64,000 nt of DNA from Erysipelotrichaceae bacterium (GTDB taxonomy: Bacteria > Bacillota_I > Bacilli_A > RFN20 > CAG-826), in contig SVAY01000001.1 of NCBI GenBank assembly GCA_015059185.1, forward strand, positions 3,252-67,251, in the 5' to 3' direction. The translations under genes were made by a program, and so were the position numbers. The notes below the pieces were generated by a model. The model did not search any database and had not been told where the DNA came from. It worked only from the letters and a program-made list of their open reading frames with translations. Below are positions 8,285 through 11,430 of this stretch, piece after piece; the stretch's first letter is position 1, and the number at the start of each line of letters is the position of its first letter.

Positions 8285-10522
8285 CTATTTTCTACTATCA
8301 AGATAGTATTTTTCTATTTTAGATCTTGCTCTAACAAAATATTTTTCTAAACTTGGGTCAAATTGTTTACCCATATTTTCCATGATGATGCGGTTCGCGT
8401 CATCAAAAGTAAATTCATCTTTATACACTCTTTTGCTCACTAAAGCATCATAGACATCAGCGATCGCCATAATACGCGCTTCTAAAGGTATCTCATCGCC
8501 TTTTAAACCATTAGGATAACCCTTTCCATCCCATCTTTCATGATGATAATGGGCAACGTTAATAGCGATTCTTTCTAATGATTTGTCAGTAACATCTTTT
8601 AAGATTTGTCCTAAGATCTTCGCTCCTTCTGGAGAATGGGTTTTCATCACTTCATATTCTTCAGGAGTGAATCTTCCAGGTTTTCTTAATATCGCATCAT
8701 CAATAGTGATTTTTCCTAAGTCATGCATAGGCGCGGCTTTGATGACAGTTTGATAGAAAGAATGATTTGATTCTAAGGAAGGATCTTTCATCATCTCTTC
8801 AACAATGAAACGAACAACATTACTTGTTCTTTTAATATGTCCACCCGTGGAATTATCTCTACCTTCCACCATCGTGGCCATTCCTAAGACCAATTTATCT
8901 TGTAACGCCACTTCTCTTTTCTTAATCGTAGAGAAAACGACAAAGAAGACAATTTGAGTGACAATTAATATTAATGTACTTGTAATAACACCAATAACAG
9001 CTTCAGTTCTATCTACACCACCACCATTACCGATAATCTTAAGCATCCATGAACCAATAGAATAGATGATTAAGACAAATAGACCAAATAATGCGGCCAT
9101 AGAATGACCAAACATTCTTCTTTTATCTCTTTTAATTAAGAATGCATAATACACAAAGCCCACGAGAGCCCATATAACAAAGATTAATATCGATTCTTTA
9201 GCTAAATAATCAGAATTAACAAAATCATTAAAGATAACAGATATCGCAAAGGCTATACCAAGCACTACACCGACAATTCCTGCTAGCATACCTTCCGCAC
9301 CACGATTCGCATCATGACGCGCTTTATTAACTGTGATAATAGAGATATATAGATAAACGATAATCCCACAGAATGTGTTAATATCAACAATCCATCCAAT
9401 TAACATTCTTCCAAAGAAAAGCATTAAAGATGTGACAATCGCGATAACAATAACAATATTTTTTGGATTATCGTTTTTATCTAATTTCGTAAACGGTTTT
9501 GGAAAGATCCCGTCCACCGCCATTGAATGAAGTAAATTAGATAAAGCTAATATATTACCGATGATGCTCGTTAAGATGATGGCTAATAAAGCGACGACAA
9601 ACATCACTAAACCAAAATTGCCTAAATAACGATGGATAACATAGAAAGCCGGTATTCCATCTAATCCAGTTAAAGAAGTTGAACTTGTTAAATATTCATA
9701 CCAGTTCGCGTATTCACTTGGGAAGACGCTGATAGATAATTGACAAATAAGAATATAGACTAAGGCCGTCACTGTCACTGAGATTAAAAAGATTTTAAAG
9801 ACATTTCTATGGCGGAATTTAAAATCTTTAGATTGATGAGAGATACTTTCAAAACCAATATAGGCCCAAGGCATCATCCCCACCACTCCAACAATTTGGA
9901 TAAATTCATTATTCCCATTAGGAGCGAAATCAGGTTTATAAGTGTCTATTCCTCCTTGATGCATAACAAAAGCGACGATAAATCCCGCGATTATTAAAGC
10001 GACGAATAAGATTACTAATCCTGCTTGTATAGAGGTAGAAACATTTCTTTTCAATAAACAAACGCCGACGAATAATAAGAAGATTACTAGAGATAACAAT
10101 ATCTCTCCTAACCAAATATCATATCCACCGATGGAATAATGGAATCCAAATTGGAATGTATTACCAAAAATATATCTCGCAAATAAAGAGATAGAAGAGA
10201 CATTGGCCCATAATATTGCGGCATAAGTAATAATTAAAAACCATGACACTAAGAAAGCGTGATCTCCACCCAGGGTGTTTTTTGCAAAGGTATAAATACC
10301 GCCATTAGAATCTGGGTATTTATTCATCATGTAATGATAGTTATACGCTAAAACCAGCATGATGAGCATGCCGATAATAATACCGATAATGCTACCAAGT
10401 GGTCCGGCCTTACTTAAGAACGAACTACCGGTGACCACAAAAGAGCCCCAGCCGATAGCTGTACCGATTGATAAACCTAAGGCTCCAAGAGCGGATACTT
10501 TTTTCTTTTTTAATCTATCCAT
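8285..10522 (-). CDS. Fusion protein: APC-superfamily amino-acid-permease-like membrane domain plus C-terminal HD-GYP phosphodiesterase domain
   Basis: 745 aa. N-terminal roughly 500 aa with about 12 TM segments resembling amino acid permeases. C-terminal HD motif (MHDLGK) and HHERWDGKGYP, the canonical HD-GYP signature. Confidence 0.7.
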   Translation of the reverse strand: MDRLKKKKVSALGALGLSIGTAIGWGSFVVTGSSFLSKAGPLGSIIGIIIGMLIMLVLAYNYHYMMNKYPDSNGGIYTFAKNTLGGDHAFLVSWFLIITYAAILWANVSSISLFARYIFGNTFQFGFHYSIGGYDIWLGEILLSLVIFLLFVGVCLLKRNVSTSIQAGLVILFVALIIAGFIVAFVMHQGGIDTYKPDFAPNGNNEFIQIVGVVGMMPWAYIGFESISHQSKDFKFRHRNVFKIFLISVTVTALVYILICQLSISVFPSEYANWYEYLTSSTSLTGLDGIPAFYVIHRYLGNFGLVMFVVALLAIILTSIIGNILALSNLLHSMAVDGIFPKPFTKLDKNDNPKNIVIVIAIVTSLMLFFGRMLIGWIVDINTFCGIIVYLYISIITVNKARHDANRGAEGMLAGIVGVVLGIAFAISVIFNDFVNSDYLAKESILIFVIWALVGFVYYAFLIKRDKRRMFGHSMAALFGLFVLIIYSIGSWMLKIIGNGGGVDRTEAVIGVITSTLILIVTQIVFFVVFSTIKKREVALQDKLVLGMATMVEGRDNSTGGHIKRTSNVVRFIVEEMMKDPSLESNHSFYQTVIKAAPMHDLGKITIDDAILRKPGRFTPEEYEVMKTHSPEGAKILGQILKDVTDKSLERIAINVAHYHHERWDGKGYPNGLKGDEIPLEARIMAIADVYDALVSKRVYKDEFTFDDANRIIMENMGKQFDPSLEKYFVRARSKIEKYYLDSRK

Positions 10523-10524
10523 CT

Positions 10525-11430
10525 TTATTTAATATTTTCTTTAATATTATCTAACTGTGGAGCGCATGCTTCTATTTCTTCTTTAGGAATAGAAACGAAG
10601 ATATCCACTAATTCTTCATCAAATTTTGTTCCCGCGTTTTCCTTGATGTTTGCGATGGCTTCTTCATAGGTTTGAGGTTTAGAGTACACTCTTCCCATGG
10701 TAATCGCAGAATAAGTATCAATAATAGCAATCATCCTGCTAGGGAATGGGATAGAATCAGCTTTTTTAAAATAATAGCCTTCCCCATCCACTCTTTCATG
10801 ATGATATAAAATCCAGTCCGCAATATAATCAAAAGATTTAATAGGTCTTAATAATCTAACACCAATTTGAGGATGGGTACGCATTATTTGTTGTTGTTCT
10901 TCGGTTAGATTACCTTCGTTATTTAATATTTCTGTTGGCAATTCTAATTTACCAATATCATGGAATAAGGCTGCATATTCTAAAGAGAGAAGATTATAAT
11001 CACCTTTATAATGACGTGGTAAATGTTTATAAAAGACTGTCATTAAATTTTTAACATGTAAACTATGTCCTTGGAGATTAGGTGCTCTTGAATCAATAAC
11101 ACTAATTAATACCTGAGCAATCTCAAGCGATCTTTGTTTTGATGTTTTGATTAAACGATTTAATAAAACAATGACAAGTGATACAAATAAACTACCAAAG
11201 AATAAGATAAAGGCGGTGACCAAACTAGGATCAGCGTATATTGCAACATAGATATATCCGATTAAAAAGAAGATGATAAGAATTAGTTCGATGATAATCA
11301 TCGCACTATCTCTTTTAACCCCACCGGAAATAACATCTTTCATCCTAAATGCAAAGATAATATAAAAAACAATATTCGCTACCATGTTAATAGCGCCAAG
11401 CCAAATTAAAATTAAAATTAACGTTTCCAT
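10525..11430 (-). CDS. Membrane-anchored HD-GYP-family phosphodiesterase (GYY variant)
   Basis: 301 aa. About 3 N-terminal TM helices. FHDIGK HD motif and YHHERVDGEGYY motif. Confidence 0.7.
   Translation of the reverse strand: METLILILIWLGAINMVANIVFYIIFAFRMKDVISGGVKRDSAMIIIELILIIFFLIGYIYVAIYADPSLVTAFILFFGSLFVSLVIVLLNRLIKTSKQRSLEIAQVLISVIDSRAPNLQGHSLHVKNLMTVFYKHLPRHYKGDYNLLSLEYAALFHDIGKLELPTEILNNEGNLTEEQQQIMRTHPQIGVRLLRPIKSFDYIADWILYHHERVDGEGYYFKKADSIPFPSRMIAIIDTYSAITMGRVYSKPQTYEEAIANIKENAGTKFDEELVDIFVSIPKEEIEACAPQLDNIKENIK

Follow-up and report, generated by a model that had tools for sequence, protein, structure and literature searches.

A permease-like APC domain fused to an HD-GYP domain in a rumen Erysipelotrichaceae bacterium: a candidate transporter-derived sensor in c-di-GMP signalling

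The 64,000-nucleotide stretch of DNA analysed here (contig SVAY01000001.1 of assembly GCA_015059185.1, positions 3,252 to 67,251; hereafter the window) comes from an Erysipelotrichaceae bacterium of the rumen and carries two adjacent genes for membrane proteins with HD-GYP domains, a type of cyclic di-GMP (c-di-GMP) phosphodiesterase domain, both on the minus strand. The first gene (10525-11430), identified by its open reading frame and a Pfam HD_5 match, encodes a 301-residue protein with three transmembrane (TM) helices and a GY(Y/F) variant of the HD-GYP motif. The second (8285-10522), identified by its reading frame, Pfam and its orthologues, encodes a 745-residue protein in which a domain resembling APC-family permeases is fused to an HD-GYP domain. 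Only 2 nt separate the stop codon of the 301-residue gene from the ATG of the fusion gene. An initial annotation, made by a model from the sequence alone, had placed the smaller gene downstream of the fusion; on the minus strand it lies upstream, in the same operon. A promoter-like site (TTGAAA, 17 nt, TAAAAT; 11463-11491, minus strand) precedes both genes and agrees with the sigma-70 consensus at 10 of 12 positions; it is a consensus match only, of a kind that occurs in the region no more often than in shuffled sequence. The same type of scan found a terminator-like hairpin with a 12-bp stem and a T-rich tail 23 nt past the fusion stop (8235-8262, minus strand), and terminator-like sites are more numerous in the region than expected (8 against 2.1). 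Because of the 2-nt gap, the sigma-70-like site upstream and the hairpin after the second stop, the two genes look like one operon, in which the fusion gene would be co-transcribed and probably translationally coupled with the 3-TM HD-GYP gene. The genes flanking the operon encode, according to Pfam, a CstA protein, an SDR and a GNAT.

The reading of the 745-residue protein as a permease-like/HD-GYP fusion proved correct: its reading frame is intact, and Pfam finds permease families followed by a complete HD_5 domain. AA_permease_2 matches residues 12-453 (profile positions 4-423 of 427; 111.4 bits against a cut-off of 27; E 7e-32) and AA_permease residues 17-465 (86.2 bits against 24.6), and APC family profiles (PF13520, PF00324; TC 2.A.3) thus cover the whole domain. 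The APC-fold core of 12 TM helices, delimited by Pfam, hhalign, motifs, and an AlphaFold2 (AF2) model compared with Foldseek, spans residues 12-465 (9128-10489, minus strand). The model is a predicted, not a solved, structure, built from an alignment of 44 sequences (pLDDT 81.4, pTM 0.72), and on it the core adopts the 12-TM LeuT/APC fold, with target-normalised TM-scores of 0.83-0.85 for AdiC and of 0.75-0.85 for AdiC, GkApcT, ApcT and the SLC7 LATs together. The profile of the permease clade to which the domain belongs (see below) aligns with GkApcT by hhalign at 99.2% probability over 415 columns. The domain would have been misread had it proved unrelated to the APC superfamily, and the Pfam scores, far above threshold, the hhalign probability and the likeness to AdiC all speak for the opposite. 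A generic 7TMR, MASE or HAMP input is ruled out, since Pfam gives APC families only and the protein has 14 TM helices with an APC fold; no Pfam match was obtained in the fusion to 7TMR, HAMP, PAS, SSF or STAC (E <= 0.01), or to Spore_permease.

With AdiC, GkApcT, ApcT and LAT/SLC7 the fusion shares the 12-TM fold, an end-to-end sequence alignment with GkApcT and the A-Y-I-G-F-E of TM6. The Gly-rich unwound segments of TM1 and TM6 that mark APC permeases are present in variant form: TM1 reads GTAIGWGSF, with Trp instead of Ser/Thr, and TM6 reads PWAYIGFE, both being kept across 90 members of the clade. The differences from GkApcT, with residue equivalences taken from hhalign, lie at key positions, where G-T-G of TM1 (T43) becomes G-W-G (W25), E115 becomes T99, K191 becomes L172 and the gate residue F231 becomes W219; at the TM8 selectivity position M321 the equivalent is ambiguous, being S319 by phmmer and N323 by hhalign, and so gives no unequivocal clue to the ligand. 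L172 occupies the place of the proton-coupling lysine (ApcT K158, GkApcT K191) at the TM5 Na2-equivalent site, where the clade consensus is hydrophobic, and the absence of this lysine puts the fusion outside the proton-coupled subgroup of ApcT and GkApcT. None of the NCBIfam transporter equivalogs (AdiC, PotE, CadB, BcaP, ArcD and others) is reached, the best being TIGR00905 with 94 bits against 409. Unlike structurally known APC transporters, the protein also continues past the core with two additional TM helices and ends in an enzyme domain.

Where the initial annotation counted 12 TM helices, 14 follow from hydropathy and the positive-inside rule together with the AF2 model, namely the 12 of the APC core, TM13 (residues ~475-498) and TM14 (~505-535). 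These last two form a helical hairpin (residues 470-535; 8918-9115, minus strand) that joins the core to the output domain and is visible both in hydropathy and in AF2 helices 475-498 and 505-543. Lysines and arginines number 19 in the cytoplasmic loops and 2 in the outside loops, which places both termini inside and the HD-GYP domain in the cytoplasm. Between hairpin and catalytic domain lies a juxtamembrane linker (residues 536-560, KKREVALQDKLVLGMATMVEGRDNS; 8843-8917, minus strand), delimited by orthologue conservation and AF2. Identity among orthologues is highest here, at 89% for residues 541-560, against 75% in the HD-GYP domain and 67.5% in the APC core, and AF2 confidence falls below 50 at residues 545-555, the lowest of the model. 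Such a conserved, low-confidence segment fits a mobile signalling linker. One might instead suppose two independent activities, a working transporter and a constitutive phosphodiesterase that are co-localised and co-expressed without allostery; sequence does not prove allostery, and the low AF2 confidence within the linker suits such a loose connection. However, the linker would then hardly need to be the most conserved part of the protein, TM14 runs in the model as one helix towards the catalytic domain, and in the kinase-fused relatives described below TM14 reaches the H-box of HisKA within ~25 residues, the usual geometry of transmembrane signalling. Co-localisation alone would also hardly account for a module that has been fused to signalling enzymes repeatedly and independently, and we consider two uncoupled activities improbable.

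The HD-GYP catalytic domain (residues 561-735; 8318-8842, minus strand) was delimited by Pfam HD_5, matches to PDB sequences and invariant residues. HD_5, the HD-GYP model, matches residues 563-725 (105.3 bits against a cut-off of 27.2; E 4e-30), as does HD, and the closest structures by sequence are PmGH (4mcw, E 1e-34) and PA4781 (4r8z, E 1e-33), at 32% identity; Foldseek aligns the C-terminal part of the model with PA4781 at a TM-score of 0.79. The following functional positions are invariant in 44 orthologues: H562, H600-D601, K604, K614-P615-G616, H629, H660-H661-E662, G668-Y669-P670, D689 and R698-x-Y700-K701. Judged by the motif definitions and residue roles given by Galperin & Chou (10.1101/2021.11.05.467447), H562, H600-D601, H629, H660-H661 and D689 align with the metal ligands of PmGH, the HHExh[D/N]GxGYP signature is present as HHERWDGKGYP, and the c-di-GMP contact motifs KPG and RxY[K/R] are present as K614-P615-G616 and R698-V-Y700-K701. 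The motifs quoted in the initial annotation (H600 D601 and HHERWDGKGYP here, HHERVDGEGYY with its GYY variant in the 3-TM protein) are thus all in place. In the position of the third-metal ligand E185 of PmGH the fusion has Ser558 (DNSTGGH against DPETQNH), which sets the domain apart from the trinuclear subgroup and points to the binuclear one, as in PA4781. In this subgroup the reaction often, but not always, ends at pGpG. The permease input distinguishes the fusion from PA4781 and PmGH, whose inputs are REC or GAF. The fusion carries a complete HD-GYP domain with c-di-GMP-specific motifs, for which c-di-GMP hydrolysis is predicted; all sequence criteria tested mark the protein as a genuine member of both the APC-fold and the HD-GYP proteins.

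The fusion is widely distributed. A search of 5.8 billion proteins returned 359 matches, of which the best 120 clusters are all 736-763 residues long and carry the same four Pfam domains at identities from 94% down to 58%; these 120 derive from ENA, NCBI, JGI and Logan assemblies, and the few with names are labelled only "amino acid permease" and belong to metagenome-assembled genomes of Bacilli or Erysipelotrichaceae. The species genomes of GTDB, when scanned, contained 15 loci with the fusion and full or near-full copies of it in at least 13 species, all from rumen or gut metagenome-assembled genomes (Bacilli, Erysipelotrichaceae, Acholeplasmatales, Mollicutes and one Eubacteriaceae). Had an assembly or sequencing artefact, such as a frameshift, joined a permease gene to an HD-GYP gene, the two domains would not recur together over their full length in at least 120 clusters of such uniform size from many independent assemblies, and the frame would not run unbroken through TM13-14 and the conserved linker; the artefact is ruled out for practical purposes, its likelihood being negligible. 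As for the rarity that the initial annotation ascribed to this architecture, we likewise found no published description in open-access text, be it of an AA_permease/APC input on HD-GYP, GGDEF or kinase proteins, and the survey of HD-GYP architectures (10.1101/2021.11.05.467447) uses neither "permease" nor "transporter" in its main text; in nature, however, the number of database matches shows that the fusion is not rare. Three ~440-residue HD-GYP proteins (P0178, P0248, P0266) match the fusion from TM13 or TM14 onward (query residues 442-742, 45-58% identity) and have no APC core; they may stand for the lineage from which its HD-GYP part and last TM helices came.

The 3-TM protein encoded upstream departs from the canonical type. 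Its membrane module (residues 1-95; 11146-11430, minus strand) is defined by hydropathy and AF2 helices 2-29, 39-65 and 70-113, and its Pfam HD_5 domain covers residues 107-274 (E 1e-31). In the AF2 model (pLDDT 89.7) the TM3 helix 70-113 continues as one helix into the catalytic domain, and Foldseek aligns the protein with PA4781 (TM-score 0.78), the fold also matching the HD-GYP domain of DvhD. Its family is large, with over 116 clusters of ~296-residue proteins that are at least 54% identical. The cytoplasmic TM1-TM2 loop, RM(K/R)DVISGGVK(K/R)D, is nearly invariant, D32, V33, G37 and D41 being present in 116 of 116 relatives. All metal ligands are invariant in the same 116; the Pro of GYP is never present (Tyr in 92, Phe in 23), KPG is mostly K-E-G and RxYK is RVYS in 84. 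With HHERVDGEGYY in place of the signature, the protein lacks the GYP, KPG and RxY[K/R] combination of canonical HD-GYP proteins and is, as far as its residues tell, a variant of the HD-GYP fold. Probably the protein is either a working hydrolase with changed substrate contacts, whose substrate may be pGpG or some other nucleotide, or a partner subunit of larger c-di-GMP enzymes. An origin of the small gene as a duplicate of the C-terminal third of the fusion, membrane part included, was suggested by a BLASTP match (27% over 305 residues) that implied likeness to TM12-14; it was dropped, as in a profile-profile comparison the homology (33% identity) does not set in until the final TM helix has ended. 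The two HD-GYP domains (~27-33% identical) are not recent duplicates. The small gene precedes the fusion in loci L001-L011, whose fusions are at least 72% identical to that of the window, and is absent beside the more distant fusions L012, L013, P0121 and P0122. Elsewhere the small gene, its product being 56-58% identical to that of the window, precedes a GGDEF-EAL gene by 11 nt (L045, 7001-10059) or stands alone (L046, L047), and is therefore not exclusively tied to the permease fusion.

The permease module itself is found on many other outputs. An exhaustive HMMER search of 1.84 billion representatives, from which the best 150 were taken, yielded the module in 89 of them, and the C-terminal outputs were assigned by seed domains and Pfam. 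Histidine kinases dominate, with 48 of the HisKA type (many with one or two REC domains) and one of the LytS type, followed by 21 GGDEF, GGDEF-EAL or PAS-GGDEF proteins, three HD-GYP clusters and two SpoIIE/PP2C phosphatases; the other 14 are short or have no recognised output. The related modules share 35-49% identity with that of the fusion, the same motifs and the same TM13-14. In the GTDB scan, the module was also found fused to HisKA-HATPase_c-REC in 12 rumen Selenomonadaceae/Veillonellaceae loci (35-40% identity over residues 2-495). Common to the clade are GxxxGWG, a YNYHYMM-like motif, WAN, PWAFxGFE, GWIVDVTT and the TM13-TM14 hairpin; over 90 representatives, the core motifs read GxxxGWG(S/A)F in TM1, WAN in TM3, PWA(F/Y)xGFE in TM6 and GWIVD(V/I)(N/T)T in TM10. 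The taxa represented in this G-W-G clade include Bacilli/Erysipelotrichaceae, Selenomonadaceae, Lachnospiraceae, Victivallales and Desulfovibrio. Across the clade, the output (HD-GYP helix 1 or HisKA H-box) starts within 15-25 residues of TM14, and kinase-fused relatives have an insert of ~38 residues in the TM13-14 loop.

Outside its own cluster, the permease domains closest to that of the fusion belong to GGDEF fusions (49% identity), and those nearest to the two other HD-GYP clusters belong to GGDEF and histidine kinase fusions (57-58%). Since the nearest permease relatives thus carry other outputs, outputs have been swapped time and again, with more than one origin of the HD-GYP fusion. 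In Desulfovibrio (L034-L036), a stand-alone G-W-G permease always lies directly upstream of a dCache-GGDEF gene (6001-7518 and 7632-9476 in L034), a pair that we regard as the split form of the APC-GGDEF fusion; in L037, an APC-GGDEF gene is followed in tandem by one for an APC-kinase-REC protein. Truly stand-alone members are few (P0183, P0184/P0429 and P0419, from Desulfovibrio, Lachnospiraceae and, for P0419, a metagenome contig), and four apparent ones (P0128, P0168, P0169, P0173) turned out to be gene fragments. The occurrence of one module on kinases, cyclases, phosphodiesterases and phosphatases is the standard mark by which comparative genomics recognises a sensory input domain, and Galperin & Chou argue likewise for MASE12 (10.1101/2021.11.05.467447). 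The permease module belongs to a distinct APC clade, mainly dedicated to signalling outputs. The suggestion of the initial annotation that the fusion acts as a transceptor gains support from these fusions to kinases, GGDEF, GGDEF-EAL and SpoIIE domains and from the split Desulfovibrio form.

Sequence conservation over 90 clade members is highest at the TM1 break (0.77), the TM6 break (0.72), TM6b (0.71), TM1b (0.68), TM3 (0.62) and TM10 (0.60), and lowest in the scaffold helices TM5, TM7, TM11, TM13 and TM14. The helices conserved here, TM1, TM6, TM3 and TM10, are those that build the substrate pocket of LeuT-fold transporters. This pattern bears on the idea that, instead of sensing soluble nutrients, the APC domain has degenerated into a membrane anchor or receives a membrane or lipid cue without transporting anything. 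The bulky Trp of TM1, where transporters carry G-S/T-G, and the missing proton-coupling Lys would suit such a role, and non-transporting receptors of the APC family, such as GerAB and Ssy1, do exist. But an anchor would not keep its substrate-site helices the most conserved across phyla, and a pure receptor would be compatible with nutrient sensing, differing on transport only; we regard a degenerate anchor or lipid-cue receptor as unlikely.

Taken with the topology and the intact catalytic residues, these observations lead us to propose that the 745-residue protein is a one-component membrane sensor or transceptor. A small ligand from outside the cell, which is probably an amino acid or an amine, would bind to the 12-TM APC-fold domain, itself derived from an amino-acid or amine transporter. 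The site would be the canonical central pocket, which the unwound stretches of TM1 and TM6 build with TM3, TM8 and TM10 and to which W25, W219, E225 and D380 are assigned. Binding would change the conformation, and the change would pass through the TM13-TM14 hairpin and the short, highly conserved juxtamembrane helix to the cytoplasmic HD-GYP domain, which has a binuclear-type metal site and c-di-GMP specificity motifs and is predicted to be catalytically competent. Ligand occupancy would then raise or lower c-di-GMP hydrolysis, by activation or inhibition, and so act on downstream c-di-GMP targets. We consider it probable that a ligand in the APC pocket alters c-di-GMP hydrolysis through TM13-14 and the linker; most likely the fusion is not just a transporter but a nutrient sensor that has received little study.

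Coupling in the reverse direction deserves attention. The protein might be a transporter first, with an HD-GYP domain that binds c-di-GMP and gates transport, hydrolysis merely resetting the switch; its core retains the full transporter fold with the TM1 and TM6 motifs, the clade has stand-alone members, and some HD-GYP domains are c-di-GMP receptors, such as that of DvhD, whose structure was solved with c-di-GMP bound (PMC13090378). All catalytic residues are nevertheless strictly conserved, and the module also occurs on PP2C phosphatases, histidine kinases and GGDEF cyclases, none of which is a nucleotide receptor, all of them being outputs. A single direction, from membrane module to enzyme, accounts for all architectures, and gating of transport by c-di-GMP seems to us unlikely.

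Several points weigh against ligand-controlled hydrolysis as proposed. The AF2 model of the fusion is a monomer with a low-confidence linker, and HD-GYP domains that, like this one, have no equivalent of PmGH E185 differ in activity (10.1101/2021.11.05.467447). The lack of the ApcT/GkApcT proton-coupling lysine also belongs here, although it is not decisive either way. Stand-alone clade members occur in ordinary transporter-like contexts, so transport by the module may persist, and flux, not binding, could be what controls signalling. Finally, the clues to a ligand given by genomic context conflict, as set out next.

These clues are weak, and the gene neighbourhood differs between loci. The best structural and NCBIfam matches are AdiC and basic-amino-acid/polyamine antiporters, and the conserved pocket residues of the clade are aromatic and acidic. 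A gene for an ornithine/diaminopimelate/arginine (lysA-like) decarboxylase lies 52 nt after an APC-kinase-REC gene in three loci (L040-L042). On the contig of L040, which alone of the three extends far enough, it is followed by genes for an SDF symporter, a diaminopimelate epimerase (dapF) and a pyridoxal-phosphate enzyme; this context faintly hints at a basic amino acid or a diaminopimelate/lysine-related ligand. In four rumen Selenomonadaceae genomes, a rhodanese gene (~130-143 residues; 10907-11326 in L016, 10885-11274 in L021, 10881-11312 in L022 and 6268-6657 in L025) lies 4-22 nt downstream of an APC-histidine-kinase gene. TrkH/TrkA genes adjoin one stand-alone clade member, and CstA adjoins the operon in the window. 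A distant APC-HD-GYP fusion (P0122 in locus L033, 41% identity) is located among prepilin peptidase and PilO/T2SSM-like genes and may be linked to type IV pilus control. With decarboxylase/dapF, rhodanese, pilus genes, TrkH/TrkA and CstA pointing in different directions, a ligand call from gene neighbourhood was dropped.

Among known systems, the nearest in kind are other transporter-derived sensors. CbrA of Pseudomonas (SLC5/SSS - STAC - PAS - histidine kinase) has been called a "rare transceptor", and CbrX, the product of a small, translationally linked gene upstream, binds its transporter domain (PMC13022988, PMC7096432). Like CbrA, the fusion has an N-terminal LeuT-fold secondary-transporter domain on a signalling enzyme, extra TM helices outside the core and a small gene immediately upstream, here that of the 3-TM protein, 2 nt away. 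Unlike CbrA, it belongs to APC proper (AA_permease) and not to SSS/SLC5, contains neither STAC nor PAS, uses a short helix as link and has an HD-GYP phosphodiesterase instead of a kinase as output; the CbrA Na2-site Lys has no counterpart (L172), and the upstream partner is an HD-GYP enzyme homologue whereas that of CbrA is a small peptide. In Ks-Amt5 of 'Ca. Kuenenia stuttgartiensis', an Amt ammonium-transporter domain is fused to a histidine kinase (PMC5764959). It resembles the fusion in using a transporter-derived membrane domain as input of a signalling enzyme, but its fold, an Amt trimer, is unrelated and its output differs. Because the transporter family differs and the SSS/SLC5 plus STAC combination of CbrA is absent, the fusion belongs to neither family. 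The MASE9, MASE10, MASE11 and MASE12 proteins with HD-GYP output (10.1101/2021.11.05.467447) likewise join an integral-membrane N-terminal input to a C-terminal HD-GYP domain; their inputs, however, have 6-8 TM helices and no transporter ancestry, and the fusion has the features of neither 7TMR-HD nor MASE proteins. Its architecture is visible to anyone through Pfam labels and is kin in kind to CbrA and Amt5.

Receptors are also found within the APC family: GerAB-type germinant receptor subunits and yeast Ssy1 and Gap1 are APC-family proteins that act as such. Gap1 is cited in this role in PMC11109136. They share with the proposed function of the fusion an APC-fold protein that senses an amino acid, but their signals go through partner proteins, no enzyme being fused to them as output.

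If our reading is right, its implications extend beyond this locus. Bacterial transceptors are still called rare in recent papers (CbrA, PMC13022988 and PMC7096432; Ks-Amt5, PMC5764959), and here a whole clade of true APC-family permease homologues appears dedicated to signalling. We tentatively suggest, as something close to an even prospect, that the G-W-G clade is a widespread, undescribed family of transceptor inputs, a 14-TM sensor domain derived from a transporter, by which histidine kinases, PP2C phosphatases, c-di-GMP cyclases and the two classes of c-di-GMP phosphodiesterase in gut and rumen anaerobes would all receive a single nutrient or amine signal; the protein of the window would be the member with HD-GYP output, and the small GY(Y/F) HD-GYP protein may form a complex with it. 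The clade offers a large and diverse natural set of fusions for studying how kinases, cyclases and phosphodiesterases read the conformational cycle of a LeuT fold. No characterised ligand-controlled membrane HD-GYP enzyme was found in the open-access literature, and the fusion protein is a tractable candidate for one. The NCBI label of these proteins, simply "amino acid permease", is a misannotation under which genomes from rumen and gut conceal a part of their c-di-GMP signalling.

Other c-di-GMP-related functions are sparse in the window. The membrane GGDEF cyclase reported in the initial annotation at 23747-24871 (minus strand) is confirmed: it has ~7 TM helices, a Pfam GGDEF match (E 1e-21) and an intact GGDEF motif. 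Located ~13 kb from the operon, it is a possible source of c-di-GMP, a dedicated partnership with the fusion not being shown. No further HD-GYP, GGDEF or EAL gene occurs within the window beyond these three, and an Rfam search revealed no c-di-GMP riboswitch or other c-di-GMP element there, its sole matches being an FMN riboswitch (333-449, minus strand, 81 bits) and a small SRP RNA (29569-29664, minus strand, 58 bits). Immediately upstream of the 7-TM GGDEF gene, a 386-residue reading frame (24900-26060, minus strand) has no Pfam match, and a weak relative of it lies near the fusion in L010.

The segment directly upstream of the HD-GYP operon (11607-13302, minus strand) contains the GNAT acetyltransferase gene (11607-12326), whose product has a DUF3791-like piece at its N-terminus, and a DUF3990 gene (12326-12808) that overlaps an HTH-DUF3791 gene (12805-13302); this pair may be a small two-gene module without assigned role. 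At 494-4781 (minus strand), adjacent genes encode an [FeFe]-hydrogenase-like protein (476 residues), a SpoIIE/PP2C phosphatase (392 residues) and a hydrogenase-like protein with an extra Fe-S domain (558 residues), which together resemble a regulatory unit of the sensory-hydrogenase/phosphatase kind. The window yielded no tRNA genes. A replication-origin region lies at 31998-46029, with gyrA, gyrB, dnaN (38982-40106) and dnaA (40248-41612) on the minus strand and YidC and MnmE on the plus strand; the cumulative GC skew reaches its minimum at ~40-42 kb of the window, and the AT-rich gap at 41613-42545 is likely oriC.

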